The position numbers and the translations under genes are program-made. From the IMG/VR virus record IMGVR_UViG_3300034105_002625, positions 25,437 to 89,436 of that record: a stretch of 64,000 bases of DNA. One strand, 5' to 3'. Source of the stretch: a virus (taxonomy: Duplodnaviria; Heunggongvirae; Uroviricota; Caudoviricetes). Shown one piece after another: positions 4,133-54,230 of the stretch (within the stretch, counting starts at the first letter, position 1; every line of letters begins with the position of its first letter). The notes below the pieces were generated by a model, which saw only the letters and a program-made list of their open reading frames with translations, was not told the DNA's origin and made no database searches.

Positions 4133-4996
4133 ATGTCTAAAAAACATGTTGTAGTATCCTTAAGTGGAGGAATGGACTCAAGTACTTTATTACTTAGATG
4201 CCTAAAAGAGTATGACACAGTTACTGCTATTAGCTTTGACTATGGTCAAAAACACAGAGTAGAGCTAGAGAGAGCTCAATCATTGGTAAACTATATTGGA
4301 GAAGAATCATCATCACAGACTGAATTACGTTATCGTCAAATTAAACTAGACGGATTAGTTGATCTATTAGATTCAGCTTTAGTAACTGGGGGTAAAGATG
4401 TACCAGAAGGTCATTACGAGCAAGACAATATGAAAGAAACAGTTGTTCCTAACAGAAACAAGATGTTCGCTTCTATTGCTCAAGCAGTAGCTTTATCGGT
4501 TGCAAATCGTACAGGAGAGACTTGTGATATTGCAATGGGAATTCATGCAGGTGATCATGCTGTTTATCCAGACTGTAGACAAGAATTTAGAGATGCAGAT
4601 GATAATGCCTTCAGAATGGGTAACTGGGATGCTGAAAGAGTAGGTTATTTTACACCTTATCTTGATACAGACAAATTCGGTATCTTACAGGATGGAGAAG
4701 TTTTATGTAAAGAGTTGTATTTAGATTTTGATGAAGTTTATTCAAGAACTAATACTTCTTATAAACCAATATGGATACCAGGACCTGAAAGTAAATCAAG
4801 AGTAGAAGAAACTCACAGAACAAAATGGGGTGAATGGTACTCAGATTATAAATCAGCATCTTCAGTAGAACGTATCGAAGCATTTATCAAACTAGGAAGA
4901 AAAGATCCAGTTGCTTATGCAGACGAAACAGGACCAGTAACATGGGAAGTAGCAAGAGATGCAGTTCAAAAAGTATTAACAGAACATAATAATTAA
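4133..4996 (+). CDS. queC: QueC-like 7-cyano-7-deazaguanine (preQ0) synthase homolog, atypical (no C-terminal Zn-Cys cluster, ~60 aa C-terminal extension)
   Basis: PP-loop SLSGGMDSS near N-terminus; QueC-like YPDCRQEF and TPYLDTDK motifs; CxxCxxC zinc ribbon of canonical QueC not present. Confidence 0.7.
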   Translation: MSKKHVVVSLSGGMDSSTLLLRCLKEYDTVTAISFDYGQKHRVELERAQSLVNYIGEESSSQTELRYRQIKLDGLVDLLDSALVTGGKDVPEGHYEQDNMKETVVPNRNKMFASIAQAVALSVANRTGETCDIAMGIHAGDHAVYPDCRQEFRDADDNAFRMGNWDAERVGYFTPYLDTDKFGILQDGEVLCKELYLDFDEVYSRTNTSYKPIWIPGPESKSRVEETHRTKWGEWYSDYKSASSVERIEAFIKLGRKDPVAYADETGPVTWEVARDAVQKVLTEHNN

Positions 4997-7270: not shown

Positions 7271-7354
7271 GGAAGGCGGCCGAATGGACGAGGAGCTTGT
7301 CTTGAAAACAAGTAGCGGGTAACACCGTTGTGGGTTCGATTCCCATGCCTTCCT
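7271..7354 (+). tRNA. tRNA-Ser (anticodon TGA), class II
   Basis: acceptor GGAAGGC/GCCTTCC; anticodon stem CTTGT/ACAAG with loop CTTGAAA; long variable arm; T-arm TGGGTTCGATTCCCA. Confidence 0.6.
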
Positions 7355-7360
7355 CAATAT

Positions 7361-7431
7361 TGCCCGTTCGTATAAAAGTAGTACACATGTCTTTGACACA
7401 TGCGGAGAAGGAGCGTTACCTTCATGGGCAA
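7361..7431 (+). tRNA. tRNA-Gln (anticodon TTG) with non-canonical T-loop AGCGTTA
   Basis: acceptor TGCCCGT/ATGGGCA (7 bp incl. G-U); anticodon stem CATGT/ACATG with loop CTTTGAC; T-arm GAAGG-AGCGTTA-CCTTC. Confidence 0.45.
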
Positions 7432-7443
7432 CAAATTAAATTT

Positions 7444-7514
7444 CTAGTAGCGAAGCTAGGTTACATGCCTCACTTGGACTGAGGAGTACGCAGGTTCGAA
7501 TCCTGCCTATTAGA
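7444..7514 (+). tRNA. tRNA-Pro (anticodon TGG)
   Basis: acceptor CTAGTAG/CTATTAG (one G-U); anticodon stem CCTCA/TGAGG with loop CTTGGAC; T-arm GCAGG-TTCGAAT-CCTGC. Confidence 0.55.
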
Positions 7515-7519
7515 CAATC

Positions 7520-7590
7520 GCCCTCTAGGCTTTAAAGTGAAGCACCTAGCTTTTAACTAGGGTAAGAAGGAGCATTACCTTCAGGGGGTA
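7520..7590 (+). tRNA. tRNA-Lys (anticodon TTT) with non-canonical T-loop AGCATTA
   Basis: acceptor GCCCTCT/AGGGGGT; anticodon stem CCTAG/CTAGG with loop CTTTTAA; T-arm GAAGG-AGCATTA-CCTTC. Confidence 0.45.
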
Positions 7591-7649
7591 CACGGATGAG
7601 ATTGTTACTAATTCATAGAACTGCATGGTGTGAGCGTAGAATTAGATTT

Positions 7650-7720
7650 GCCTCGTTGGCGTAATGGGAGCGTATTTCTTTTACATGGAAATGGCAGTGG
7701 TTCGATTCCACTACGAGGTA
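7650..7720 (+). tRNA. tRNA-Val (anticodon TAC)
   Basis: acceptor GCCTCGT/ACGAGGT; anticodon stem TTTCT/GGAAA with loop TTTACAT; T-arm AGTGG-TTCGATT-CCACT. Confidence 0.55.
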
Positions 7721-7921
7721 CTAAGTAAGTTAATATGCTGTGAAAGCTTCAATGAGCGCAAGTTGAAGTTAGGTGGGTTCGAGCCCCTCTACTGTAGTAA
7801 TAGCCTAAGTCGGAGGCAGCCAAGTAGCAGATAACATATTATAGCCGATTTGGGTTGTGCACCTCGTCCGAGAAGCCCTAATAGTTCCTAATAGTTCGGT
7901 ATGGAACAACTTACTTAAAAT

Positions 7922-7992
7922 GGGGACAACAGGCAAGGTGCCGAGCAGCTCTGTAAAAGCTCACTGGGTAGGTTCGATTCCTACTGGCCCCA
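7922..7992 (+). tRNA. tRNA-like gene, tentative anticodon GTA (Tyr) in a class-I (short variable arm) scaffold
   Basis: acceptor GGGGACA/TGGCCCC (one A:G mismatch); T-arm GTAGG-TTCGATT-CCTAC; 4-bp anticodon stem AGCT/AGCT with loop CTGTAAA. Confidence 0.3.
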
Positions 7993-8098
7993 CAAAGTCA
8001 TGGCATCAAATCCCGGTAGGGGTGCTGACTTAAAATAAACAACGATGGTGAAAATGGAGTCCTGCAGGCTAACCAGAAGTAACAACGAGGGGATAATT

Positions 8099-8171
8099 GG
8101 GGATTAAGCTAATCTAGTGAAAGCGCTAGCCTGAAGAGTTAGAGAGATCGGAGCGTAACCGATAGTCCCCA
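8099..8171 (+). tRNA. tRNA-Phe (anticodon GAA) with non-canonical T-loop AGCGTAA
   Basis: acceptor GGGGATT/AGTCCCC; anticodon stem CTAGC/GTTAG with loop CTGAAGA; T-arm ATCGG-AGCGTAA-CCGAT. Confidence 0.45.
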
Positions 8172-8178
8172 CAATATT

Positions 8179-8251
8179 GGTCTGAAGCTTAAGAGGTATA
8201 CAGCGGAGGTTTGTTAAACCTAGGATAGCAGGTTCGAGTCCTGTCAGACCA
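8179..8251 (+). tRNA. tRNA-like gene, anticodon unresolved
   Basis: perfect acceptor GGTCTGA/TCAGACC; T-arm CAGG-TTCGAGT-CCTG; anticodon arm does not fold canonically by eye. Confidence 0.3.
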
Positions 8252-8478
8252 GCAAAACTACTGAAATTGAATGACACGAGCTTCATACGTTCGAAAGGAG
8301 TCATGCAGTAGTTTAAAATGTTCGTATAGATGTGCTGTGGATACGCAGGGAACACATCGAGTGGGTTAATGATGGTAGTAGGTACACAACACTCCTTAAT
8401 ACTAGGATTGGAGCGAAGGGTTGATGCATACTGCAGGTAATTAACAAGACTGGTTCGATTCCAGTTACGGGCGCAATT

Positions 8479-8550
8479 TCTCCTATAGTAGAATGGTTAG
8501 CACACATCTCTGATAAGGATGAAATGGAAGTTCAATTCTTCCTAGGAGTA
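8479..8550 (+). tRNA. tRNA-Ile (anticodon GAT)
   Basis: acceptor TCTCCTA/TAGGAGT (1:72 mismatch); anticodon stem CATCT/GGATG with loop CTGATAA; T-arm GGAAG-TTCAATT-CTTCC. Confidence 0.5.
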
Positions 8551-8662
8551 CAAAAGTTACCACGCTTGTTCCGTCAGTGGTTGTAAAGTCGAATCAATAA
8601 ACGGAACCCCAAATGGAGGTCTTGCCTTAGTAGACTAAAGATTCTAAACGACAACTTTAAAT

Positions 8663-8745
8663 GGAAAGTAAATCAACTAGGAGTTGAGACCGCTTGCTAA
8701 GCGTATCGTGCCTTCGGGCATGGGGTTCGATACCTCTACTTTCCT
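8663..8745 (+). tRNA. tRNA-Ser (anticodon GCT), class II
   Basis: perfect acceptor GGAAAGT/ACTTTCC; anticodon loop TTGCTAA on a short G-C stem; variable-arm hairpin GTGCC-TTCG-GGCAT; T-loop TTCGATA; 83 nt. Confidence 0.45.
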
Positions 8746-8955
8746 CTTTAAAAACCTGGTCCCTGTCCTCATAAAGTGTTTAAGGAACACAGGAGTTGAA
8801 TGTGCATTCGGGGCGGATAGTGGTGGGACACTGATAAATAAAATCTTAAGCACAAAGATAAGTTAACGGGTTCTTATCAACTACCGACTTGATCTAGGAT
8901 CGAAAATATCTCATAAGTATTTTCAGACAAGAGCGTAACTTGTAGTCGGTACAAA

Positions 8956-9034
8956 GCTAAAGTGGTGAAATTGGTAAACACTCCCATCGAGAGATGGTGC
9001 GGATTTTGTAGGTTCGAGTCCTACCTTTAGTGTA
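8956..9034 (+). tRNA. tRNA-like gene, anticodon unresolved
   Basis: acceptor GCTAAAG/CTTTAGT; T-arm GTAGG-TTCGAGT-CCTAC; 79 nt. Confidence 0.3.
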
Positions 9035-9038
9035 TATG

Positions 9039-9110
9039 GTGTTTCTAGCTTAATCGGTAAAGTGCTTCACTGTGAATGAAGAGAACAGGGTTCGAAACCC
9101 GGAAACACAC
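9039..9110 (+). tRNA. tRNA-His (anticodon GTG) with extra 5' G(-1)
   Basis: anticodon stem CTTCA/TGAAG with loop CTGTGAA; 8-bp-type acceptor GTGTTTC/GAAACAC; T-loop TTCGAAA. Confidence 0.5.
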
Positions 9111-9204
9111 GACGACGCCCAAAGGACGATCGACCTGGCCAGAGACTAGTTCTTGCAAACTCAATGCCTAAAGTTGAGCGGCCAATCTATGGGATTGGCT
9201 TTAC

Positions 9205-9277
9205 ATCCCTGTGGTGAAACGGTAAACACAACGAGTTTAAGCCTCGTAAGCTGCAGGTTCGACTCCTGTCAGGGATA
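9205..9277 (+). tRNA. class-I tRNA with apparent anticodon TAA (Leu-type anticodon without long variable arm), A73
   Basis: perfect acceptor ATCCCTG/CAGGGAT; anticodon stem ACGAG/CTCGT with loop TTTAAGC; 3-nt variable region; T-arm GCAGG-TTCGACT-CCTGT; 73 nt. Confidence 0.4.
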
Positions 9278-9282
9278 CAAAT

Positions 9283-9355
9283 GGTCTTGTAGCATAAATG
9301 GAAATGCACTTGAATACGAATCAAGAGATTGTAGGCTCGAATCCTACCAGGACTT
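9283..9355 (+). tRNA. tRNA-Arg (anticodon ACG)
   Basis: acceptor GGTCTTG/CAGGACT; anticodon stem CTTGA/TCAAG with loop ATACGAA; T-arm GTAGG-CTCGAAT-CCTAC. Confidence 0.6.
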
Positions 9356-9360
9356 CAATT

Positions 9361-9432
9361 GCCCTATTAGTTAAACGGATATAACGAATCTCTTCTAAAG
9401 ATTAATTCTAGGTTCGATTCCTGGATGGGGTA
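9361..9432 (+). tRNA. tRNA-Arg (anticodon TCT)
   Basis: acceptor GCCCTAT/ATGGGGT; anticodon stem AATCT/AGATT with loop CTTCTAA; T-arm CTAGG-TTCGATT-CCTGG. Confidence 0.6.
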
Positions 9433-9495
9433 CAAAAAAATCGTATTGGAAGAAAGTTTGATCAACTTTCGTAGGTTAAGCGATATCCTACAAAT

Positions 9496-9566
9496 GCAGG
9501 TCACAGACAAGGTGTCGGTACGGTCTCCAAAACTGCTACGGGTAAGTTCGATTCTTACGGTCTGCG
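9496..9566 (+). tRNA. tRNA-Trp (anticodon CCA)
   Basis: acceptor GCAGGTC/GGTCTGC; anticodon stem CGGT/ACTG (+1 mismatch) with loop CTCCAAA; T-arm GTAAG-TTCGATT-CTTAC. Confidence 0.5.
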
Positions 9567-9598
9567 CAAAATAAATTGTTTCATTTAAAATTAAAATC

Positions 9599-10105
9599 AT
9601 GAGTAAGTACCAAAGAACACTGGTAATTGATTCAAGCTTTATGGCAAGATCTATTATCTCTACCGAAAGAGCTTTCGTGATTTCGTATAAGGGTAATGCA
9701 GAAGTTATAGCTGAACATCCAGAAACATTCGGATTAGTAAATCCGGATTTAAAAATTAATAAACCTTCAATCATTAGGGTTTACAAATACGTAAAACAAG
9801 ACATTCAAAAAGTTCCTCTAACAAGAGAGAACATTTATCGAAGAGATAATTACGAATGTGTTTATTGTGGATCAAGTTACTTGAAGTCACTAACACTTGA
9901 CCATGTCATCCCACAATCAAAAGGTGGAGCAAATGCTTGGGATAATTTAGTAACAGCATGTAGAACTTGCAATTCAGAAAAAGCAGATTTAACTCTTGAG
10001 GAATATGGTAAAGACATAGTAGAACCAAAAAGACCTCATTATCTAATGCTTATGAAACAGTTAACATACATTCCAAAAGAATGGGAAACATTTTTATTTT
10101 TCTAG
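9599..10105 (+). CDS. free-standing HNH homing endonuclease inserted in the tRNA array
   Basis: 168 aa; CVYCGSSY...LDHVIPQSKGGANAWDNLVTACRTCNSEK is an HNH/zinc-ribbon motif; located between tRNA-Trp and the second promoter of the array. Confidence 0.8.
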   Translation: MSKYQRTLVIDSSFMARSIISTERAFVISYKGNAEVIAEHPETFGLVNPDLKINKPSIIRVYKYVKQDIQKVPLTRENIYRRDNYECVYCGSSYLKSLTLDHVIPQSKGGANAWDNLVTACRTCNSEKADLTLEEYGKDIVEPKRPHYLMLMKQLTYIPKEWETFLFF

Positions 10106-10113
10106 TAAAAAAA

Positions 10114-10150
10114 GTTGCTAGAAAGAAATAAAGTTCGTATCTTTAAGTAT
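10114..10150 (+). promoter_or_regulatory. promoter (GTTGCTAG + TTCGTATCTTTAAGTAT box) for the second half of the tRNA array
   Basis: same bipartite motif as 7191-7227, immediately after HNH stop. Confidence 0.5.
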
Positions 10151-10227
10151 AAGAAAGAAACATCACCTACTACGTAACGCACGATCGACGACACGTACTG
10201 TCTGGCAGGTCAGGCTAGGTGATAAAT

Positions 10228-10297
10228 GGGCAGGGTGGTCTTGGAGGCCGGTGGCATTGCAACAGCTACAGACAGAGTTCGATTCTCTGCTTGCCCT
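10228..10297 (+). tRNA. tRNA-like gene, tentative anticodon GCA (Cys)
   Basis: acceptor GGGCAGG/CTTGCCC; T-arm CAGAG-TTCGATT-CTCTG; anticodon stem TGGC(A)/(A)GCTA with loop TTGCAAC. Confidence 0.35.
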
Positions 10298-10393
10298 CAT
10301 TGAAGGTTCGACCCTCTACCATCTTGTATTACACCTACAGATGGATATCGAGAGGGAGCTACCGATTGATAAGTGACCGCACATGCGGTAAAT

Positions 10394-10465
10394 GCCCGAG
10401 TGGTGGAACGGTAGACACGCTAGTCTTAGGAACTAGATACTGAGGGTTCGAATCCCTCCTTGGGT
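10394..10465 (+). tRNA. class-I tRNA with apparent anticodon TAG (Leu-type anticodon without long variable arm), A73
   Basis: acceptor GCCCGAG/CTTGGGT; anticodon stem CTAGT/ACTAG with loop CTTAGGA; 5-nt variable region; T-arm GAGGG-TTCGAAT-CCCTC; 72 nt. Confidence 0.4.
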
Positions 10466-10545
10466 ACGATAGTAGGACCGGGTTACCGGATATGGGTTCC
10501 TTAATTGGACAGAAGGACTGGAGTCCTAGTCGCCTACAAAATAAA

Positions 10546-10613
10546 ATTAGAGTTCGCTTATAGTAAAGCAGCAGGGGCTAACCTGCAGAAGGGATTCCAA
10601 CACCCACTCTAAT
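10546..10613 (+). tRNA. degenerate tRNA-like element / possible tRNA pseudogene
   Basis: perfect 7-bp acceptor ATTAGAG/CTCTAAT; D-stem GCTT/AAGC; anticodon-like hairpin GCAGG-GGCTAA-CCTGC with a 6-nt loop; weak T-arm GGG-ATTCCAACA-CCC. Confidence 0.25.
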
Positions 10614-10619
10614 TTACTT

Positions 10620-10693
10620 GCTCTCGACGCACAAATGGTGGTGCACCGGATTTGTAACCCGGAATAGAGCCAGTTCGATCCTGGCCGAGAGCT
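10620..10693 (+). tRNA. tRNA-Thr (anticodon TGT)
   Basis: perfect acceptor GCTCTCG/CGAGAGC; anticodon loop TTTGTAA on CCGG(A)/(C)CCGG stem; T-arm GCCAG-TTCGATC-CTGGC. Confidence 0.55.
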
Positions 10694-10701
10694 CAATAAA
10701 T

Positions 10702-10774
10702 GCGAATGTCGTATAACGGCTCATTACTCTTGACTTCCAATCAAGGAATGAGGGTTCGATTCCCTCCATTCGCT
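10702..10774 (+). tRNA. tRNA-Gly (anticodon TCC)
   Basis: perfect acceptor GCGAATG/CATTCGC; anticodon stem CTTGA/TCAAG with loop CTTCCAA; T-arm GAGGG-TTCGATT-CCCTC. Confidence 0.6.
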
Positions 10775-10780
10775 CAAAAT

Positions 10781-10852
10781 GGCCCTATCGTCTATCGGTT
10801 AGGACACATGGTTTTCATCCATGAAAGTCGGGTTCGACTCCCGGTGGGGCTA
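10781..10852 (+). tRNA. tRNA-Glu (anticodon TTC)
   Basis: acceptor GGCCCTA/TGGGGCT; anticodon stem CATGG/CCATG with loop TTTTCAT; T-arm TCGGG-TTCGACT-CCCGG. Confidence 0.6.
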
Positions 10853-10857
10853 CAATT

Positions 10858-10929
10858 GGGGCTATAGTATAACGGCTATTACAATGGTTTTGCAAATCAT
10901 AAATTGGAGTTCGATTCTCCATAGCTCCA
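10858..10929 (+). tRNA. tRNA-Ala (anticodon TGC) with G3:U70 identity pair
   Basis: acceptor GGGGCTA/TAGCTCC gives G3:U70; anticodon stem ATGGT/ATCAT with loop TTTGCAA; T-arm TGGAG-TTCGATT-CTCCA. Confidence 0.65.
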
Positions 10930-10934
10930 CAAAA

Positions 10935-11007
10935 GGTCTATTCGTTCAACGGCTAGGACACTACCCTGTCACGGTAGGGATGAGAGTTCGATTCTCTCAT
11001 AGACCGC
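10935..11007 (+). tRNA. tRNA-Asp (anticodon GTC)
   Basis: perfect acceptor GGTCTAT/ATAGACC; anticodon stem CTACC/GGTAG with loop CTGTCAC; T-arm GAGAG-TTCGATT-CTCTC. Confidence 0.65.
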
Positions 11008-11012
11008 TATAT

Positions 11013-11086
11013 CGCGAGTTGGTAGAAGATGGTATCTCGCTAGGCTCATAACCTAGAGGTCGGGGGTTCGAATCCCTCACTCGCTA
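11013..11086 (+). tRNA. tRNA-Met (anticodon CAT)
   Basis: anticodon stem CTAGG/CCTAG with loop CTCATAA; T-arm GGGGG-TTCGAAT-CCCTC; acceptor CGCGAGT/ACTCGCT with one terminal mismatch. Confidence 0.5.
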
Positions 11087-11091
11087 CTAAT

Positions 11092-11166
11092 GTCCTTTTA
11101 GCTCAGCCCGGTTAGAGCAGCTCGCTCATAACGAGAAGGTCACAGGTTCGAATCCTGTATAGGACA
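11092..11166 (+). tRNA. second CAT-anticodon tRNA (elongator Met, or Ile2 after lysidine modification)
   Basis: acceptor GTCCTTT/ATAGGAC; D-arm GCTCAGCCCGGTTAGAGC; anticodon loop CTCATAA on CTCG/CGAG stem; T-arm ACAGG-TTCGAAT-CCTGT. Confidence 0.5.
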
Positions 11167-11196
11167 CAAAAATTTTATCCAATAAAAATAAAAGTT

Positions 11197-12998: not shown

Positions 12999-13649
12999 AT
13001 GAAAATTACATTAGAAAAAGATCAAAGAATCTTCTTTACATCAGACACACATTACGCTCACTCAAACATCTGTAGTGCTACTACAAACTGGACTGAGTCT
13101 TCGAACTTGACAAGAGAATTCAATTCACTTGATCATATGAACCAAGTACTTGTTGATAACATCAACAACATGGTTGGTGAAGATGATATCTTAATTCATT
13201 TAGGAGATTTTAGCTTTGGAGGATTTGATAAGATACAAGAATTCAGAAGTAGAATCCTTTGTAAAAACATTCACTTGGTACTTGGAAATCATGATCACCA
13301 CATTGAAAGAAACAAAGAAGGAGTTCAAAAACTATTCTCTTCAGTACAAAACTACTTGAGATTAGAAGTAAGAAAGCCAATTAATAAGGCATTAACAGAC
13401 AAGCATATTTTCGTTTGTATGCACTATCCAATTGCGTCATGGCATGATATGAACCAAGGAGTAATTCACTTGCATGGCCACGTGCATTTACCTTCACACC
13501 TACGAATAGCAGAGGGTAAAGCAATGGATGTTGGAGTAGATGGAAATGGTTTAGAGCCTTTATCACTAGGAGAGATCCTTATGATTATGAAAGACCAACC
13601 AATTAGAAAATTAGAGTTACCAAAGGATCATCACGAAAAAAGAATCTAA
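12999..13649 (+). CDS. calcineurin-like metallophosphoesterase (putative RNA-end-healing 2',3'-cyclic/3'-phosphatase)
   Basis: 216 aa; GDFSFGG and GNHDHH motifs of the metallophosphatase superfamily; adjacent to P-loop kinase and RNA ligase. Confidence 0.65.
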   Translation: MKITLEKDQRIFFTSDTHYAHSNICSATTNWTESSNLTREFNSLDHMNQVLVDNINNMVGEDDILIHLGDFSFGGFDKIQEFRSRILCKNIHLVLGNHDHHIERNKEGVQKLFSSVQNYLRLEVRKPINKALTDKHIFVCMHYPIASWHDMNQGVIHLHGHVHLPSHLRIAEGKAMDVGVDGNGLEPLSLGEILMIMKDQPIRKLELPKDHHEKRI

Positions 13650-13650
13650 T

Positions 13651-14037
13651 ATGAAAGAGTTATTTTTATTAAGAGGATTACCTGGATCAGGTAAATCAAC
13701 ATTTGCAAAGGCATTAACAGGTGTTTATACTATAGAAGCAGATAAGTACTTTATGGATGGAGATGAATATAAATTTGATCCGTCTAAACTAAAAGATGCA
13801 CATGCTTGGTGTCAAAATACTACACGGGTTTGGATGACAACTGGTGTAAAAAGAATCACAATAGCAAACACATTTACTCAGGAATGGGAAATGCAACCAT
13901 ACTACGATTTAGCTAAAGAGTACGGATACAGAGTTTACTCTTTGATTGTAGAAAATAGACATGAAGGGGTAAATGAACATGGAGTACCAGAAGAAAAATT
14001 AGTACAAATGAAAAATAGATTCGAGATCAAGCTATGA
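13651..14037 (+). CDS. P-loop polynucleotide-kinase-like protein
   Basis: 128 aa; Walker A GLPGSGKST at residues 9-17; size and context match AAA_33 / Pnk kinase domains. Confidence 0.55.
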   Translation: MKELFLLRGLPGSGKSTFAKALTGVYTIEADKYFMDGDEYKFDPSKLKDAHAWCQNTTRVWMTTGVKRITIANTFTQEWEMQPYYDLAKEYGYRVYSLIVENRHEGVNEHGVPEEKLVQMKNRFEIKL

Positions 14038-14252
14038 GAGTAGTAGAAGAGTTTGATGTTCAAGGAAGAGTTATTAAACAAAAAATAGCAGGCCCTTACT
14101 ATGATTCTATTTGGACTTACGAGTATCAAGGAGATACAGTCATTGAAAAAAGAAGTGATGCTGTTTGGACTAAAATTATAAATCATAAGGATAAGACATC
14201 TAAATTAGTTTATCCTGATAAAAAAGAATACAATATAACTTATAATACATAA
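14034..14252 (+). CDS. hypothetical protein
   Basis: 72 aa ORF, start overlaps upstream stop (ATGA). Confidence 0.3.
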   Translation: MRVVEEFDVQGRVIKQKIAGPYYDSIWTYEYQGDTVIEKRSDAVWTKIINHKDKTSKLVYPDKKEYNITYNT

Positions 14253-14255
14253 GAA

Positions 14256-15398
14256 ATGGAAAATAATAACAGTGTTTGCTTTATAGCAAAAATAAATGAA
14301 GTAAGAGCAATTGAAGGAGCAGATAACATCGAACTTGTAATCGCAGGTGGGTGGAATGCTATTACTAAAAAAGGTGAATTTAAAGTAGGTGATGAAACAA
14401 TCATTGCAACTACTGATGCAGTTATACCAGAATCTCTTTCTGAGGAAATGGGAGTTGCTTCTTACCTAAGAAAAGGAGGTAGAGTAAGAACTGTTAAACT
14501 AAGAGGAGTTTATTCTGAATGTTTAATCATTCCAATGACTTACCTTAGGGGTAAAGCCACAATGGGGGATTGGGATTTAAAAGAAGGAAGTGACTGCATG
14601 GAACTATTAGGTATCACCAAATACGAACCACCAGTTAAACAAATTCAACTTGCTTCAGGTAGAAAAATCAAATGGAGAGACAATCAAAACTTCCATATCT
14701 ATTACAAATTCCCAAACCTTAAAAACGTTGATGGAATGTTTACAGAAGAAGATACAGTAGAGATTTCTCGTAAAATTCATGGTACAAATGCTAGATACGG
14801 TATTGTAAAAAAGACTAAATTGTCATTCTGGGATAAAGTAAAAAAATTCTTTAGATTAGCTGATAAGTGGATTAACTACGAATACATTTACGGTTCACAT
14901 AACTGTGAGAAAGGATCTGACTCTCAAGGATTTTATTCTGAAGATGTTTGGAAAACAATTGCTGAGAAGTATGATATTAAAGCTAAGCTTTGGAAATATG
15001 TTAAAGATACAGCTAATATTGTAGACATTGGAAGTGGTATAGTACTCTATGGAGAAATTTATGGAGCAGGTATTCAAAAGAACTATGACTATGGATTGGA
15101 TGATATTAAATTTATAGGATTTGATACAACTATGAAAGGTGACTATAATTCACCAGCGGGTACTTACGGTGCATTTCATTCACTAGACTTACCTTATATT
15201 GAAGTACTTTATTTTGGACTTTGGAATCAAGAAGTACAGGATAAGTTTGTATTTAACAACTTCATTGAAGGAACAAAAGTACCACATGAAGGAATTGTAA
15301 TCAAACACAGTTCAGGAGATAGAAAAAAAGTAGCAAAGGTAATCAATCCAGACTATTTGATCTACGGAGAGAAGAATGATGTAGGAGATTCACATTAA
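14256..15398 (+). CDS. ATP-dependent RNA ligase (Rnl2/Rnl5-like) with N-terminal OB-fold tRNA-binding-like domain
   Basis: 380 aa; nucleotidyltransferase motif I KIHGTN (lysine-adenylate site, as in T4 Rnl2); first ~100 aa resemble the Myf/Trbp111 tRNA-binding OB fold (…GADNIELVIAGGWNAI…LRGVYSECLIIP). Confidence 0.65.
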   Translation: MENNNSVCFIAKINEVRAIEGADNIELVIAGGWNAITKKGEFKVGDETIIATTDAVIPESLSEEMGVASYLRKGGRVRTVKLRGVYSECLIIPMTYLRGKATMGDWDLKEGSDCMELLGITKYEPPVKQIQLASGRKIKWRDNQNFHIYYKFPNLKNVDGMFTEEDTVEISRKIHGTNARYGIVKKTKLSFWDKVKKFFRLADKWINYEYIYGSHNCEKGSDSQGFYSEDVWKTIAEKYDIKAKLWKYVKDTANIVDIGSGIVLYGEIYGAGIQKNYDYGLDDIKFIGFDTTMKGDYNSPAGTYGAFHSLDLPYIEVLYFGLWNQEVQDKFVFNNFIEGTKVPHEGIVIKHSSGDRKKVAKVINPDYLIYGEKNDVGDSH

Positions 15399-34449: not shown

Positions 34450-36398
<1,949 letters not shown>

Positions 36399-41099: not shown

Positions 41100-42542
41100 A
41101 TGAAAGAAAAATTTCGTTATGTTAAGAAAGAAGATCGTAAAAAGATACTTCTGTTATGCGATGATATTAGGATGCATTCCGGTATCGCAACGATGGCTAG
41201 AGAGATTGTTGTAGGAACATCTCATCACTTTAACTGGATCAATCTAGGAGCTGCAATTAACCACCCCGAAGCAGGAAAAGGATTTGACATCTCAGGAGAG
41301 GTTAATAGGTTAACAGGGCTAGAAGATTCAGATGTAAAGGTATTGCCTAACAATGGTTATGGAGATGCTATGCAAATTAGAGCTTTAATTGCACAAGAAA
41401 AGCCAGATGCTATTTTTATCTTTACAGATCCAAGGTACTGGGTATGGTTATTTGAAATAGAAAGAGAGATTAGAAATGAAATTCCTTTGATGTACTTAAA
41501 CATTTGGGATGACTATCCAGCTCCTCTTTATAACAAACCGTACTACGAGTCATGTGATTTGTTAATGGCAATCTCAAAACAAACTAAAAATATTAATGAA
41601 ATAGTTTTAGGAGAAGCAGTTGAGAATAAGATTTTAAAATATGTTCCTCATGGAATAAATGAAGAGCACTTCTTTCCAATGACCTCAGTAGATCAACTTG
41701 AGACTTTAGGTCAATTTAAAAAAGACTTATTTCAAGGAAAGGATATCGAATTCGTAGCATTCTTCAATTCAAGAAACATCAGAAGAAAATCTCCAGGAGA
41801 TGTAATTCTATCTTATAGAATGTTCTGTGATTTAATCGGAGAAGAGAAAGCTAAGAAATGTGCTTTAGTAATGCACACACAGGCTGTAGATGAAAACGGT
41901 ACAGACCTTTATGCAGTAAGAGAAGCAATTTGTGATGAGAGTTATGTAAATGTATTCTTCTCACAAGAGAGATTAGATACTCCACAAATTAATTTACTTT
42001 ATAACATAGCTGATGTAGGATTGCTTATCACTTCAAATGAAGGATGGGGATTATCTCTAACTGAGACTATGATGGCAGGTAAAATGATCATAGCCAACGT
42101 AACAGGCGGTATGCAAGATCAAATGAGATTTACAGATGAGAATGGTGAGTGGATTAACTTCACTCCTGACTTCCCTTCTAACCATAGAGGTACTTATAAA
42201 GAGCATGGAGAGTGGGCAGTGCCTGTCTATCCTTCAAACATCTCAATGGTAGGTTCAGTTCCAACTCCATACATCTTCGATGATAGGTGTGCACCAGAAG
42301 ACGTAGCTAAAGCTTTAGAAGAGGTTTACAACATGGGGAAAGAAGAGAGAGATAGAAGAGGATTATTAGCTAGAGAATGGGTAACATCAGATGAATCAGG
42401 AATGTCAGCACGTCAAATGTGTACAAACGTTATTGATGCAATGGATGAGACATTTGAAAAGTTTACTCCAAGATCTAGATTTGACCTATATAAAGTAACA
42501 GACAGACCAAAAAAATATATCACACATAAATTAATATACTAG
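41100..42542 (+). CDS. glycosyltransferase, GT4-like (GT-B fold)
   Basis: 480 aa; NEGWGLSLTETMMAGKMIIA resembles the E-x-FG…EAMAxGxPVI GT4 donor-binding motif. Confidence 0.55.
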   Translation: MKEKFRYVKKEDRKKILLLCDDIRMHSGIATMAREIVVGTSHHFNWINLGAAINHPEAGKGFDISGEVNRLTGLEDSDVKVLPNNGYGDAMQIRALIAQEKPDAIFIFTDPRYWVWLFEIEREIRNEIPLMYLNIWDDYPAPLYNKPYYESCDLLMAISKQTKNINEIVLGEAVENKILKYVPHGINEEHFFPMTSVDQLETLGQFKKDLFQGKDIEFVAFFNSRNIRRKSPGDVILSYRMFCDLIGEEKAKKCALVMHTQAVDENGTDLYAVREAICDESYVNVFFSQERLDTPQINLLYNIADVGLLITSNEGWGLSLTETMMAGKMIIANVTGGMQDQMRFTDENGEWINFTPDFPSNHRGTYKEHGEWAVPVYPSNISMVGSVPTPYIFDDRCAPEDVAKALEEVYNMGKEERDRRGLLAREWVTSDESGMSARQMCTNVIDAMDETFEKFTPRSRFDLYKVTDRPKKYITHKLIY

Positions 42543-42544
42543 TT

Positions 42545-43831
42545 ATGAGTAAACCTACATTAGTAGTAAGCTGTCCAGTAGACACTTACTCAGGATATGG
42601 AGCAAGAGCAAGAGACTTTGTACAATCAATTATCGATACAGATAAGTACGAAGTAAAGATCCTATCACAAAGATGGGGAGGTACTAGATTTGGATATCTT
42701 AAAGATCATAAGAATGAATCTTTAGCCTCTAGAATTATACCACAACTAACACAACAGCCAGACATCTGGATTCAAATTACAGTACCGAATGAATTTCAAA
42801 AGGTTGGTAAATACAATATTGGACTAACAGCAGGAATTGAAACTACAATCTGTGATCCTTCCTGGATTGAAGGATGTAACAGAATGGACTTAGTATTAGT
42901 ATCAGCACAACATGCTAAGAAAGTATTTGAAGATAGTAAATTCAATATGCAAGATTCAAATACAGGACAAGTAACAGGACAGTTAGCACTTAGTACAAAG
43001 GTAGAAGTTCTATTTGAAGGAGCTGATATAGAGAAGTATGCACCATTGTCATGGCCAGTCACATTAGATCTTTCAACTATACCGGAAATGTTCTGCTTCC
43101 TAACAGTAGGTCACTGGCTTCAGGGGTCTCTTGGAGAGGATAGAAAGAATATTGGATACACTATTAAAGCATTCTTAGAAACATTTAAGAATAAAAAAGA
43201 TCAACCGGCACTTATTTTAAAAGTACAAGCAGGAGCAGGAACCTCTATCATGGATAGGGAAGCAGTGTTGGATAAAATTGATGCAATCAGAAAGACAGTA
43301 AAGGGAAAGTTACCAAACATTTACGTACTACATGGAGAAATGTCTGATGCTGAAGTAAATGAACTATACAACCACGGTAAGGTAAAGGCGATGATCTCTT
43401 TAACAAAAGGAGAAGGATTTGGAAGACCTCTACTAGAATTTAGTTTAATAAACAAACCAATCATAGCTTCAGGATGGTCAGGGCATATTGACTTCCTTGA
43501 TAATCGATATACAAAACAAATAGGAGGAACTCTTACAAACGTACATCCATCAGCAGCTGTAGACAAAATGATCTTACAAGAAAGCCAGTGGTTTACACCA
43601 GACGATGCTCTTGTAGGAAAAGCTCTTAAGGATGTATTTGAGGATTATAAACCATATAAGGAATTAGCCAAAAGACAGGGGTATAAGAGTAGAACTGAGT
43701 TCTCGTATGATAAGATGAGAGAGACGCTAGATACTCTTCTAACACAGTACATTCCTGAATTCCCTAAGCAAGTACAGTTAAAGTTACCTCAACTTAAGAA
43801 AATAGAACTACCAAAATTAACTAAAATATAA
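42545..43831 (+). CDS. glycosyltransferase, GT4-like (GT-B fold)
   Basis: 428 aa; GEGFGRPLLEFSLINKPIIASGW matches GT4 motif. Confidence 0.6.
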   Translation: MSKPTLVVSCPVDTYSGYGARARDFVQSIIDTDKYEVKILSQRWGGTRFGYLKDHKNESLASRIIPQLTQQPDIWIQITVPNEFQKVGKYNIGLTAGIETTICDPSWIEGCNRMDLVLVSAQHAKKVFEDSKFNMQDSNTGQVTGQLALSTKVEVLFEGADIEKYAPLSWPVTLDLSTIPEMFCFLTVGHWLQGSLGEDRKNIGYTIKAFLETFKNKKDQPALILKVQAGAGTSIMDREAVLDKIDAIRKTVKGKLPNIYVLHGEMSDAEVNELYNHGKVKAMISLTKGEGFGRPLLEFSLINKPIIASGWSGHIDFLDNRYTKQIGGTLTNVHPSAAVDKMILQESQWFTPDDALVGKALKDVFEDYKPYKELAKRQGYKSRTEFSYDKMRETLDTLLTQYIPEFPKQVQLKLPQLKKIELPKLTKI

Positions 43832-44289
43832 TGGAAGAAAAAATGTCAATCTGTCCACATTGTGGAGGAAATGCTTGCTATGAACAAGCAGTAACAGAAG
43901 AAGTAACAACAAGCTTTTGCTTTGGATGCGGGTATTCAACTTCAACTCTAATGGTTGAAGGAGGAGATTTAGTAAACAAAACACTAGAAGCATCACCAGA
44001 ACTTTATAAAGATCTTATGTTTGTAAGTGAAGATAAGAAAGTATGGTTCCCTTCTACAGTTACTCTTCCAAATAAAGGAATGGTATTCTTAGACGGAACA
44101 GCAAAAGAGAATTGGAGATGGGCAGCAGTAACCTCAGTAGAGATTCTAGAAGAAGAGAAAGCTAAATTTCCAAAAGGTCAGACAACTAAAATGGATATGA
44201 AAAATATCAAACATTTTGAGAAAGAAGATTTTATGGAAGCATTAGATGCTATCAAATTCTTTGATGTAGAAGTTGCTGAATCAGAATAA
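43831..44289 (+). CDS. zinc-ribbon protein
   Basis: 152 aa; CPHCGG…CFGCGYS. Confidence 0.3.
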   Translation: MEEKMSICPHCGGNACYEQAVTEEVTTSFCFGCGYSTSTLMVEGGDLVNKTLEASPELYKDLMFVSEDKKVWFPSTVTLPNKGMVFLDGTAKENWRWAAVTSVEILEEEKAKFPKGQTTKMDMKNIKHFEKEDFMEALDAIKFFDVEVAESE

Positions 44290-44291
44290 AT

Positions 44292-44308
44292 TTCTTATCT
44301 TAATAGGA
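44292..44308 (+). promoter_or_regulatory. promoter box TTTCTTATCTTAATAGG abutting ATG (leaderless candidate)
   Basis: box ends at ATG 44308. Confidence 0.35.
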
Positions 44309-44925
44309 TGAAAATAAGTTATGCAATAACAGTTTGTAATGAGTTGGAGGAGATTAAACGCTTAGTGACTTTCCTCCTTCTTACTAAACGTAAAGAAGAC
44401 GAAGTAGTTATTTTATTTGATGAGAAGAACGGAACAGATGAAGTATTTGATTACATAGAGTCTCAAGTTTATCACTGTGAAGTATTCTGTGAAAAGTTTG
44501 AAGGACACTTTGCTGATTGGAAAAATGAACTTACATCACACTGTACAGGAAAGTACATCTTTCAAATAGATGCAGACGAACTTCCAACTGAAGACCTTAT
44601 TGTAAACCTTCCGTACATCTTAGAAGTTAATCAAGATGTAGATGTATTTCTTGTACCAAGAATTAATACAGTAGAAGGACTAACACTTCAACATATTCAG
44701 AAATGGGGATGGAATGTAAATGATAAAGGTTGGGTAAACTTCCCAGACTACCAATGGAGAATTTATAGAAATGATCCTAGTATAAAATGGAAGAACAGAG
44801 TACACGAAGTACTAGAAGGATTTAAAACATCCACACTACTTCCAGCAGAGGAGATGTATTGCCTATATCATCCAAAGACAATCGACAGACAAGAGAAACA
44901 GAATAATTATTACGATACATTATAA
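44308..44925 (+). CDS. glycosyltransferase family 2-like
   Basis: 205 aa; N-terminal ISYAITVCNE… typical GT2 Rossmann start; DxD-like IDADE. Confidence 0.5.
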   Translation: MKISYAITVCNELEEIKRLVTFLLLTKRKEDEVVILFDEKNGTDEVFDYIESQVYHCEVFCEKFEGHFADWKNELTSHCTGKYIFQIDADELPTEDLIVNLPYILEVNQDVDVFLVPRINTVEGLTLQHIQKWGWNVNDKGWVNFPDYQWRIYRNDPSIKWKNRVHEVLEGFKTSTLLPAEEMYCLYHPKTIDRQEKQNNYYDTL

Positions 44926-44932
44926 ATTAGTT

Positions 44933-46243
44933 ATGGATAGTATTTTAAATTTAGTACAAGAGTACATTACAAAGAAGGATAGCGAGAAGAAATGGGTAGC
45001 AGGAGAAGACTTAGTTCAATATGCTGGACCTTACTTCGATGGTCAAGAAGCTCAAGCGGTTGTTAGGACTATGCTTGAAGGATGGTTAGTTCTAGGAAAA
45101 GAAGGAGCAATGTTTGAAAGACGTTTCCCTAAAAAATTAGGGCAGAAGACTGGAGTCATTGTTAATAGCGGTTCAAGTGCTAATTTACTAATGATGTTAG
45201 CCTTAACATCTAAGAGAGGAATGAACTTACCAAAAGGTACAAAAGTAATTACTCCAATAGCAGGATTCCCTGCAACACTTAGTCCTACTATTCAAGTAGG
45301 CTTTACACCAATCTTTGTTGATATTGAATTAGAATCTCTTAATCTAGACTTAGATCAAGTAGAGCAAGCATGCATTGATCATCCGGATGCAAAGATAATT
45401 ACATTTGCTCACGTATTAGGTAATCCACCTAACATGGATCGATTAATGGAAATTGTAAACAAATATAATTTAATTCTATTAGAAGACTGTTGTGATGCTT
45501 TAGGAACGACATACGATGGTAAGATGTTAGGATCATTTGGTAAAATGTCTTCATGCTCATTCTATCCAGCACATCACATTACAATGGGTGAAGGAGGATT
45601 TGTAGCTTGTGGAGATGCTCATACAGAAAAGATACTAAGAAGTTTTAGAGACTGGGGTAGAGGGTGTTTCTGTCAAGGTAAAGCAAATGCTTTAGAATGT
45701 GGTTCATGTGGTATTAGATTTAGTAATTGGTTACCAAGTCTTCCTAATGAGATCTTTGATCACAAATATACTTATGAAGAGATTGGATACAATTTAAAAC
45801 CTACAGAGTTACAAGCAGCAATGGGTAATGTTCAGTTAGGTAAGTTAGAAGAGATTGGAGTACTGAGAAGAAGAAATCATAAAGCAATTGTTGACATCTT
45901 TAAGAAGTATGAAGATAAATTTATCCTTCCTAAAGCTACAGATAAATCAGATCCAGATTGGTTTGCAGTAGCATTAACATTAAGAGACGGAGTAGGATTT
46001 ACAAGATCTGAATTCTGTCAATACTTAGAAGCAAATAAGATTCAAACAAGACCTTACTTTGCAGGTAACATTATGTTACAGCCAGGCTATTCACATTTAA
46101 TTGATTCAAAAGAAGTTATTGAGAAATATCCAGTATCAAGAAAAGTAACAACAGATACTTTCTTCTTAGGATGCTCACCAATCATTACATTGGAACAAAT
46201 AGAATACATTGGAACAATTGTAGATAAATTCTTCAGTAAATAG
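44933..46243 (+). CDS. NDP-4-keto-6-deoxyhexose 3-dehydrase (E1 / DdhC / ColD-type, PMP-dependent DegT family enzyme with active-site His replacing Lys and [2Fe-2S] Cys cluster)
   Basis: 436 aa; DegT/aminotransferase fold; SFYPAHHITMGEGG (His where aminotransferases have the PLP Lys); Cys cluster CFCQGKANALECGSCG. Confidence 0.7.
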   Translation: MDSILNLVQEYITKKDSEKKWVAGEDLVQYAGPYFDGQEAQAVVRTMLEGWLVLGKEGAMFERRFPKKLGQKTGVIVNSGSSANLLMMLALTSKRGMNLPKGTKVITPIAGFPATLSPTIQVGFTPIFVDIELESLNLDLDQVEQACIDHPDAKIITFAHVLGNPPNMDRLMEIVNKYNLILLEDCCDALGTTYDGKMLGSFGKMSSCSFYPAHHITMGEGGFVACGDAHTEKILRSFRDWGRGCFCQGKANALECGSCGIRFSNWLPSLPNEIFDHKYTYEEIGYNLKPTELQAAMGNVQLGKLEEIGVLRRRNHKAIVDIFKKYEDKFILPKATDKSDPDWFAVALTLRDGVGFTRSEFCQYLEANKIQTRPYFAGNIMLQPGYSHLIDSKEVIEKYPVSRKVTTDTFFLGCSPIITLEQIEYIGTIVDKFFSK

Positions 46244-46244
46244 T

Positions 46245-48081: not shown

Positions 48082-48108
48082 ATAACATAAAAAGATAATT
48101 TTATAAAG

Positions 48109-54212: not shown

Positions 54213-54230
54213 GTTACATATATACATACA

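Follow-up and report, generated by a model that had tools for sequence, protein, structure and literature searches.

In the canonical elbow of transfer RNA (tRNA), the bases A58, G18, R57 (G57), G19 and C56 are stacked on one another, G18 bonds pseudouridine (Psi) 55, and the outer face of the G19-C56 pair offers a stacking surface to ribosomal protein L5, the L1 stalk, RNase P and T-boxes (PMC4810234). Here, we analysed tRNA genes of a different make in a 64-kb stretch (hereafter the window, i.e., the whole stretch of DNA under study) of IMG/VR record IMGVR_UViG_3300034105_002625, which belongs to the Caudoviricetes. The tRNA cluster of the window includes genes for tRNA-Gln(UUG), tRNA-Lys(UUU), tRNA-Phe(GAA) and a compact tRNA(CAU) that have in common an alternative elbow. 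The class to which they belong shares with the canonical bacterial and phage elongator tRNAs (RF00005) the cloverleaf of 7/4/5/5 base pairs (bp), the anticodon loop of 7 nucleotides (nt), U33, R37, G19-C56, R57 and G53-C61, but differs from them by the changes of G18 to A18, U54 to A54, U55 to G55, A58 to U58 and pyrimidine 60 (Y60) to A60. The alternative elbow appears to be a hitherto undescribed design for a functional tRNA; no description of the class was found in the full-text literature searched, the loop sequences themselves included, nor in the review PMC7609411.

Several known T-loops share part of this pattern. In the five-nucleotide T-loop motif, positions 1 and 5 pair in trans Watson-Crick/Hoogsteen geometry, usually as U:A or Y:A, and the base at position 2 (U or G) touches the one that intercalates between positions 4 and 5. 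Those of riboswitches (flavin mononucleotide and cobalamin) follow the consensus YGNRA, and an adenosine is almost always inserted between positions 4 and 5, facing G2 (bioRxiv 10.1101/2022.12.26.521914). Like them, the window genes have a G at position 2 and what would be an intercalating A (G55 and A18 in tRNA numbering), and another class of phage tRNAs, with UGCRA, fits YGNRA completely. However, the riboswitch T-loops are not in tRNAs and have a pyrimidine at position 1 and A5, whereas the window genes have A1 and U5, outside the Y...A consensus. This G/A-type T-loop is also reported in RNase P and ribosomal RNA (rRNA). In the eukaryotic cytoplasmic initiator tRNA-Met, A54 and A60 are found together with Psi55 and (m1)A58, and G18 is kept. 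The phage genes share A54 and A60 with this initiator, and its pattern is copied by a phage class with AUCGAUA (A54, U55, A58, A60), but the window genes have U58, G55 and A18, and those for Gln, Lys and Phe are of elongator type. Zagryadskaya, Doyon and Steinberg reportedly selected suppressor tRNAs in vivo from randomised D and T loops and found that U54-A58 could be replaced by G54-A58 or G54-G58; A54-U58 and A18/G55 are said not to be among their solutions. The G54-G58 solutions resemble natural loops in phages (Streptomyces phage Warpy and Leptolyngbya phage Lbo-JY46, see below), with the difference that the phage loops are in natural genes. Likewise, the rRNA-type GGAAG T-loop (bioRxiv 10.1101/2022.12.26.521914) resembles the phage variants with G54, G55 and G58. 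Finally, mitochondrial tRNAs and tRNA-Pyl (PMC7609411) share with the phage class the loss of the G18-G19 and TPsiC signatures, but they lose or replace G19-C56 and belong to dedicated translation systems, whereas the phage class retains G19-C56 together with an alternative loop that is strictly conserved, and would have to serve the ordinary bacterial ribosome.

The sequence-only reading of the window had placed three of the four genes (Gln, Lys and Phe) and described their T loops as non-canonical. Their coordinates and T arms read exactly as it gave them (Table 1), and the perfect stems that it reported hold in the sense that all positions pair, but some of these pairs are G:U wobbles (one in the acceptor stem of Gln, two in that of Lys, including G1:U72, one in that of Phe and one in the Phe anticodon stem). 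All three genes have the cloverleaf layout, i.e., a 7-bp acceptor stem, a D stem of 3-4 bp, a 5-bp anticodon stem with a 7-nt loop, a 5-bp T stem with a 7-nt loop and a discriminator base. Their anticodon loops (CUUUGAC in Gln, CUUUUAA in Lys, CUGAAGA in Phe) have U33 and A37, and the minimum-free-energy fold of Gln and Lys is the cloverleaf. In tRNA-Lys, A8 (7527) and U14 (7533) replace U8:A14; tRNA-Phe also carries A8. When submitted to the covariance model, as had been proposed, all three were accepted, with RF00005 scores of 42.1 bits for Gln, 37.1 for Lys and 44.2 for Phe, the gathering score being 29. The speed filters of Rfam lose Gln and Lys when the whole window is searched at once, and ARAGORN, run on the window, called none of the three. 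The Gln gene is found in identical form in two other loci (L028 and L029), the second of which has the same Phe gene; a variant of the latter in L118 has compensatory changes in the T and anticodon stems. The claim that these are real tRNAs under structural selection is thus borne out by Rfam acceptance and by compensatory changes in the stems.

The motif AGCRTWA occurs 42 times in the window (both strands) and is closed by a perfect 5-bp stem in four of these occurrences; all four lie within the tRNA cluster on its + strand and belong to folds that are cloverleaves or tRNA-like. Chance is thus not a plausible explanation for the loops. A shifted register of the T loop was considered and rejected, since no alternative stem extension pairs. 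In all four genes, G19, C56 and R57 are kept, and positions 18, 54, 55, 58 and 60 are A, A, G, U and A, respectively; the canonical set (G18, G19, U54, U55, C56, R57, A58, Y60) is found in none of them. The sequence-only reading had seen the switch at 54/58 but left out the change of partners at G55/A18, and what follows goes beyond it also in the A18-G19 D loops, the fourth gene and the existence of a widespread viral class.

Table 1. Features of the window, numbered from its first nucleotide.
Feature	Position	Strand	Description
tRNA cluster holding the four alternative-elbow genes	7271-11167	+	at least 24 tRNA genes, single strand
tRNA-Gln(UUG), 71 nt	7361-7431	+	D loop AAAAGUA (A18 7377, G19 7378); T arm GAAGG-AGCGUUA-CCUUC
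Gln T loop	7412-7418	+	A54 G55 C56 G57 U58 U59 A60
tRNA-Lys(UUU), 71 nt	7520-7590	+	D loop UAAAGUG (A18 7536, G19 7537); T arm GAAGG-AGCAUUA-CCUUC
Lys T loop	7571-7577	+	A54 G55 C56 A57 U58 U59 A60
tRNA-Phe(GAA), 73 nt	8099-8171	+	D loop AUCUAGUGA (A18 8116, G19 8117); T arm AUCGG-AGCGUAA-CCGAU
Phe T loop	8152-8158	+	A54 G55 C56 G57 U58 A59 A60
Compact tRNA(CAU), 69 nt, alternative elbow	8883-8951	+	T arm ACAAG-AGCGUAA-CUUGU; fold and covariation
CAU gene T loop	8932-8938	+	AGCGUAA
Two further CAU tRNAs	11013-11087, 11092-11167		
tRNA-Tyr(GUA)-like gene	7922-7992		
tRNA-Asn(GUU)	8178-8252		canonical T loop
Conserved element of about 160 nt with tRNA-like ends	8316-8478		
tRNA-Ser(GCU)-like gene	8659-8746		T loop UUCGAUA
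tRNA-Trp(CCA)-like gene	9495-9566		
HNH endonuclease gene	9599-10105		mid-cluster
Putative RNA healing-and-sealing cassette	12999-15398	+	just downstream of the cluster; Pfam hits
Calcineurin-like metallophosphoesterase	12999-13649	+	Pfam
Small P-loop (AAA_33) kinase	13651-14037	+	Pfam
RNA ligase, OB-fold N-terminal domain	14256-15398	+	Pfam
QueC-like 7-deazaguanine synthesis gene	4133-4996		
Thymidylate synthase gene	20687-21967		
GroEL-type chaperonin gene	34758-36398		
Apparent sugar-modification locus	41100-55508		

The fourth gene, which reads CAU, is built from a 7-bp acceptor stem, a 1-nt linker, a D arm GAUC-UAG-GAUC (A18 at 8896, G19 at 8897) with its 3-nt loop, an 8-bp anticodon stem with the loop CUCAUAA and a 2-nt variable region. 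None of 200 shuffled sequences folds as well. In the alignment of its family (A2), 12 of the 24 pairs are compensatory and 98.7% of the cells are paired. The gene is kept in 13 other loci, 12 of them related clusters and one the unrelated contig L026; the orthologue in L040 is called tRNA-Met(cat) by ARAGORN. Two more CAU tRNAs are encoded in the window, so that Met, initiator and Ile2 are all candidates for its identity. With its single nucleotide between acceptor and D stems, tiny D loop, long anticodon stem and short variable region, the CAU gene is like tRNA-Pyl (PMC7609411), and its build also recalls mitochondrial tRNA-Ser(UCN).

The class was delimited with an exact scan of IMG/VR for the T arm GAAGGAGCRTTACCTTC (GAAGG-AGCRTTA-CCTTC), which occurs in at least 119 contigs. 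Among the 121 T-arm matches listed, 113 sit within a complete cloverleaf. The tRNAs per locus were counted on the loci of the matches listed and in the window, where a cloverleaf scanner blind to the sequence of the T loop found 603 unique tRNAs; the 560 unique tRNAs without the search pattern make up the unselected set. The class with A54, G55 and U58 comprises at least 56 unique sequences with 12 anticodons and 42 acceptor-stem families, from 85 loci of 27-47% G+C, and the anticodons among the members listed include Lys, Gln, Ile, Met, Val, Phe, Glu, Asp, His, Asn and Tyr. In the loci listed, the alternative tRNAs are always in phage tRNA clusters, with one to four per cluster, and 99 out of 100 are the sole gene for their anticodon in the locus. 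The possibility that they are extra copies beside canonical ones was rejected, since in only one of the 100 cases does the locus also have a canonical tRNA for that anticodon.

Such genes are poorly seen by current tools. In the same loci, ARAGORN detected 584 of 590 canonical but 31 of 100 alternative tRNAs, as expected from the earlier claim that motif-based detection would miss them, and the alternative genes are systematically undercounted because about two thirds of them escape this program. The silence of ARAGORN could also mean that they are decaying pseudogenes, or tRNA-like decoys unused in translation, and some of the copies in cultured phages are degenerate. In these phages, the exact T arm was found only in those of Pseudomonas syringae: it is intact in a tRNA-Ile(GAU) of Pseudomonas phage 16Q (OR001909.1, 20706-20776; annotated plainly as tRNA-Ile), and the copies of KIL1-5 and ventosus are unannotated and partly degenerate, that of KIL1 having A19 and a broken D stem and that of ventosus pairing at five of seven acceptor positions. 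Still, we regard decay or decoys as the least probable of all the readings considered here. The stems covary fully, CCA is encoded in many relatives, the genes are the sole copies of their anticodon found in the locus, the anticodon loops are intact with U33 and R37, and acceptor stem and discriminator match those of canonical orthologues. In the alignment of the Lys family (A1, 21 alternative tRNAs), 100% of the cells are paired, none of 500 shuffles reaches the observed score, and all 16 pairs outside the T stem (which is fixed by the search pattern) have changed on both sides. The 3'-CCA directly follows the predicted discriminator in 32 of 70 alternative tRNAs from unrelated phages. Full covariation of the stems, encoded CCA and sole copies together argue that the genes are under selection for tRNA structure and are not relics.

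The reciprocal change at positions 54 and 58 had been proposed to be covariation, and this is what we observe across phage tRNAs. In the unselected set, the combinations are U/A (487), A/U (38), G/G (9) and A/A (9), each of the others being found at most six times. Positions 18-19 and 55 are coupled in a similar way: GG/U occurs 485 times and AG/G 38 times, against one GG/G and three AG/U, and the rest of this table consists mostly of D loops in which position 18 could not be assigned. Put differently, A18 is present in 38 of the 40 tRNAs with G55 (of the other two, one has GG and one is unassignable), and G18 in 485 of the 506 with U55, where AG occurs three times. The coupling between 18 and 55 recurs in an independent control set, obtained with a scan seeded on a canonical T arm. 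The two switches are separable, since all four combinations exist: UUCRA, AUCGU (22), UGCRA (15) and AGCRU (56). Loops of the type AUCGUUA (A54, U55, U58) keep GG in the D loop, and those of the type UGCRAAU (U54, G55, A58) have AG. Position 60 follows position 54: A60 is found in 31 of the 38 unselected tRNAs with A54/U58 and in 13/13, 15/20 and 6/7 of the members of three A54 classes, and U54 accompanies a pyrimidine at 60. A54 and U58 also travel with a variable loop of 4 nt and usually with the pair G52-C62.

Further combinations at these positions were met in cultured and uncultured phages. The tRNA-His of Streptomyces phage Warpy (MF358541.1; L167, 2493-2566), annotated as such, has the T loop GGCGGUA and the D loop AAAAGUA, and matches to this variant are present in 13 related Streptomyces phage records, where it is mostly unannotated. 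Leptolyngbya phage Lbo-JY46 (PP438436.1; L165, 2015-2085) has an unannotated tRNA-Lys(UUU) with GUCGGUA and UAAGGUG. On the uncultured IMG/VR contig L028, the Lys gene has GCCAGUA and UAAGGUG where its relatives have AGCAUUA. The pair between positions 8 and 14 varies in these phages as well (U/A 728, A/U 36, G/G 19, A/A 21). Of the tRNAs with A8/U14, 22 out of 36 belong to the alternative Lys family, and some of the 36 have canonical T loops.

On these grounds, the four window genes are very probably genuine, translation-competent phage tRNAs, in which the elbow would be built from different but matched bases. The outer face of G19-C56, the purine at 57 and G53-C61 would be kept. G18:Psi55 would be replaced jointly by A18:G55, and U54:A58 by A54:U58, the latter with A60, the G52-C62 pair and the 4-nt variable loop. 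Only buried partners would thus be altered, with A18 intercalating and facing G55 as riboswitch T-loops suggest. A54:U58 may still form a reverse-Hoogsteen pair; the 8-14 reverse-Hoogsteen pair shows the same substitutions, which is indirect support for A54:U58 standing in for U54:A58. The alternative tRNAs would be transcribed within the cluster and then processed. Their CCA end must be added or repaired, because in the lineage of the window the discriminator is followed by CAA, and charging by host synthetases is presumed because the canonical orthologues have matching acceptors, discriminators and anticodons. Since U54, U55 and A58 are absent, m5U54, Psi55 and m1A58 cannot be formed, and the TPsiC signature is lacking. 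Sequence and established enzymology together predict that TrmA/TrmFO, TruB and TrmI lack their target base, in agreement with the earlier suggestion that the usual T-loop modification is barred. We infer the three-dimensional geometry, aminoacylation, use in translation and any benefit to the phage from the sequences.

Some observations weigh against this conclusion. The exchanged pair A54:U58 is not strictly isosteric with U54:A58, and the geometry of the loop may differ more than we assume. The minimum-free-energy fold of Phe recovers the acceptor and T arms only. In Escherichia coli, U59 and U60 contribute to recognition by the phenylalanyl-tRNA synthetase (PheRS), and the window Phe gene has A59 and A60 at these positions. 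The architecture of the CAU gene is unusual and departs from the standard cloverleaf in its 8-bp anticodon stem and 3-nt D loop; no Rfam tRNA hit was obtained in 8552-8960, this gene included, at E values up to 10. Finally, the loci were picked by one T-arm sequence, and the anticodon frequencies are therefore biased to Lys and Gln; the comparison with cellular genomes presented below also rests on a single T-arm sequence.

The history of the alternative elbow can be followed in clusters that are syntenic with that of the window (L009, L016, L023, L028, L029, L031, L036, L040, L054, L082, L105, L111, L115, L118 and others), where the same gene is found in different elbow states. The tRNA-Val(UAC) genes of L031 (canonical) and L009 (alternative) differ nowhere but in the D loop and the T arm. 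The D loop is AAUGGAA in the former and AAUAGGA in the latter, the T loop is UUCGAUU and AGCGUAA, respectively, and in the T stem one pair is changed on both sides and another on one side; overall, this makes five of the seven T-loop bases, two T-stem positions and two D-loop bases, including G18 to A18. The tRNA-Gln(UUG) gene is found in three states (D loop/T loop): the canonical elbow ACCGGUUA/UUCAAUU in L016 and L023, the intermediate AAAGGUA/AUCGUUA in L054, and AAAAGUA/AGCGUUA in the window, L028 and L029. Within both loops, the last two differ exactly by G18 to A and U55 to G; the T-stem sequences differ too. For the CAU gene, L040, L111 and L115 show AGGU/AUCGUUA, and the window shares UAG(U)/AGCGUAA with eight related loci. 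In the case of Phe, Glu and Asp, the acceptor stems of the alternative genes are unlike those of the canonical genes of the relatives, and these alternative genes look like replacements rather than conversions.

Such series are consistent with neutral compensatory drift, in which an equally good elbow is reached by chance, without any advantage, in fast-evolving and weakly constrained phage tRNAs. We regard this as possible, but less likely than not. All intermediates exist (AUCGU with G18, UGCRA with A18), each step looks viable, further variants occur (G54...G58, A54...A58), and the 8-14 pair is equally loose. The unselected members have no isoacceptor preference (Val, Glu, Phe, Gln, His, Asp, Ile), and the frequency of the class is low. 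The control scan seeded on the canonical T arm gives 284 unselected unique phage tRNAs, of which 261 are canonical at positions 54-55-58, three have A54-G55-U58, four A54-U55-U58 and three U54-G55-A58, four are of G...G types, and nine are other hits, several of them apparently false. Hence, the full alternative elbow is carried by about 1% of phage tRNAs, and some variant of it by several per cent. Drift accounts less easily for the fact that the acquired state is strictly kept (AGCRUWA, G52-G53, A18-G19) while the other stems turn over. The Val switch is confined to the D loop and T arm, with the rest unchanged, which is not clock-like, and the change recurs in several orthologue families of one lineage (Val, Gln, CAU, Asp, Glu, Phe). 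The near absence of the searched T arm from cellular genomes also speaks against it.

This last point comes from a scan of 596 Gb of sequence, in which each of 185,579 bacterial and archaeal species was represented by a single genome, for the T-arm pattern extended by one base. The scan returned 44 places, close to the chance expectation, 42 of which are coding or chance matches. The other two are tRNAs, one on an 8.9-kb contig of a 'Woesearchaeota' metagenome-assembled genome that has 20 tRNA genes, and one on a single-cell contig of Pelagibacteraceae; both contigs look like phage DNA. A cellular origin was therefore rejected, as the T arm gives in 596 Gb two tRNAs, both on phage-like contigs.

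A T arm that is viral apart from these two contigs could serve counter-defence, with the elbow hiding the tRNAs from a factor of the host or of a competitor (a T-loop tRNase, an elbow-docking defence nuclease or a modification-dependent quality control) while they would still be accepted by the ribosome. In support, one to four tRNAs are converted per cluster, each the sole gene found for its anticodon, and switching is abrupt and repeated among close relatives, and the conversions leave untouched the face that the translation machinery uses (G19-C56, R57). The putative RNA repair cassette beside the cluster (Table 1) would hint at pressure from tRNA nucleases. A toxin, CdiA-CT E479, is said to cut between T54 and Psi55. 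Yet there is no known defence system that reads the bases of the T loop, Cas12a3 contacts only the backbone of the T arm, and most tRNAs of the same clusters keep the canonical loop. Phage tRNAs do escape PARIS, retron and anticodon nucleases by sequence changes (PMC11464382, PMC12409363, PMC11555353, PMC10264068), but the escapes described so far lie in the anticodon arm (PMC12409363, PMC10264068). The immunity-escaping tRNAs (tRNA-Lys(UUU), Thr and Asn of T5 against PARIS AriB, tRNA-Tyr against retron Ec78, and those of mycobacteriophage) are also cluster-encoded isoacceptor variants, and tRNA-Lys(UUU) is prominent among them as it is in the alternative-elbow class. Their changes are in the anticodon stem-loop, whereas the window genes have an ordinary anticodon arm and a changed elbow, and no nuclease is implicated. 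Taken together, such evasion seems to us possible but rather unlikely. More doubtful still is that the elbow forms an adaptive stealth module, acquired through repeated conversion of individual tRNAs (G18 to A in the D loop plus a new T loop), which would keep the G19-C56 surface and erase the TPsiC signature from the sight of a host defence, toxin or quality-control factor.

The cassette just downstream of the cluster, with its metallophosphoesterase, kinase and RNA ligase, may be an RNA or tRNA healing-and-sealing set like Pnkp/Rnl1 of T4. Together with the QueC-like gene of the window, these putative ligase, kinase and phosphoesterase genes could also suggest that the T arm is a tag for a phage-encoded partner, i.e., that it marks the tRNAs for a phage enzyme (of modification, repair or CCA addition) or spares them from a phage nuclease that destroys the tRNAs of the host. 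The conservation of the whole 17-nt T arm across unrelated isoacceptors would fit such a tag. We find it improbable, for in the unselected members the T stems vary freely except for G52-G53, and a tag of this kind would leave most of the tRNAs of the clusters unprotected, since those are canonical.

The long reading frames of the window are all on one strand, and its G+C content is about 34%. By protein, the nearest cultured relatives are the Flavobacterium phages vB_FspM_immuto, with about 94% identity in the DNA polymerase. No DNA match to the tRNA region and no homologous cluster were found among 50,697 phage records (megablast, blastn). At the equivalent place, the immuto phages have three or four canonical tRNAs (Ser, Glu, Gln and an annotated tRNA-Cys); these are few and all canonical, and thus gave no comparison for the elbow. 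The cluster has three or four genes in these phages (immuto, L001, 20246-21326) and at least 24 in the window, and such a difference in cluster size between phages with DNA polymerases about 94% identical indicates that the tRNA complement is highly fluid within this genus-level group. Apart from the four genes, the tRNAs of the cluster have canonical UUCRANY T loops, and none of those detected is a Gln, Lys or Phe tRNA. In the lineage of the window (L009-L118), CAA comes after the discriminator in 131 of the 168 canonical tRNAs and in 17 of the 30 alternative ones; among the unrelated phages of the sample, CCA follows it in 320 of 422 cases. CAA is thus a conserved near-CCA trailer in this lineage, with its processing unexplained.

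The cluster contains other deviant tRNA-like genes. The tRNA-Ser(GCU)-like gene has the acceptor stem GGAAAGU/ACUUUCC, a long variable arm and an odd D stem of 5-6 bp with a loop of 3-5 nt. Its fold has z = -3.35, it is reported by neither ARAGORN nor Rfam (E up to 10), and it is conserved in eight loci (L029, L118, L031, L009, L054, L086, L100, L012). The tRNA-Trp(CCA)-like gene, with a deviant D arm, is missed by ARAGORN, and its sole Rfam match is to the tRNA-Sec model, below threshold (30.4 vs 47 bits). Also missed by ARAGORN are the tRNA-Tyr(GUA)-like gene, which has no long variable arm and one acceptor mismatch and scores 27.1 bits against a threshold of 29, and the tRNA-Asn(GUU), in spite of its 49 bits and canonical T loop. 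The element of about 160 nt is conserved with 96% identity in L118, 93% in L054 and 85% in L023 and L028. Its ends are tRNA-like, with the acceptor halves GUUCGUA...UACGGGC and a canonical T arm ACUGG-UUCGAUU-CCAGU, and about 85 extra nt lie between them; candidates are a tRNA that is interrupted or contains an intron, and some other kind of structured RNA. The HNH endonuclease gene sits in the middle of the cluster; Leptolyngbya phage Lbo-JY46 and Pseudomonas phages 16Q and KIL1 likewise have tRNA clusters that are split by homing or HNH endonucleases. Beyond the cluster, the window encodes a thymidylate synthase, a GroEL-type chaperonin and, in what is apparently a locus for sugar modification, a long run of glycosyltransferases together with a DegT-type aminotransferase and a thiamine-pyrophosphate enzyme.

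The sequences G18-G19 and T54-Psi55-C56...A58 are treated as universal in cytoplasmic tRNA, and phages would supply a second, strictly conserved solution. This solution, A18-G19 with A54-G55-C56-R-U58-W-A60, forms together with its intermediates a natural double-mutant cycle for the elbow and links the T-loop of tRNA to the G/A-type T-loop of riboswitches. It raises the question of how much of the elbow is really read by the ribosome, EF-Tu, RNase P, the CCA-adding enzyme and the synthetases. Because ARAGORN misses about two thirds of these genes and Rfam filters can drop them, the tRNA complements of phages, and the codon-usage arguments built on them, are undercounted. If functional in bacteria, tRNAs that cannot be modified at positions 54, 55 and 58 would be useful as orthogonal scaffolds. 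If the alternative elbow is adaptive, it points to a factor that reads the T-loop, and if it serves to hide phage tRNAs, phages and hosts would be contesting tRNA at the elbow as well as at the anticodon loop.

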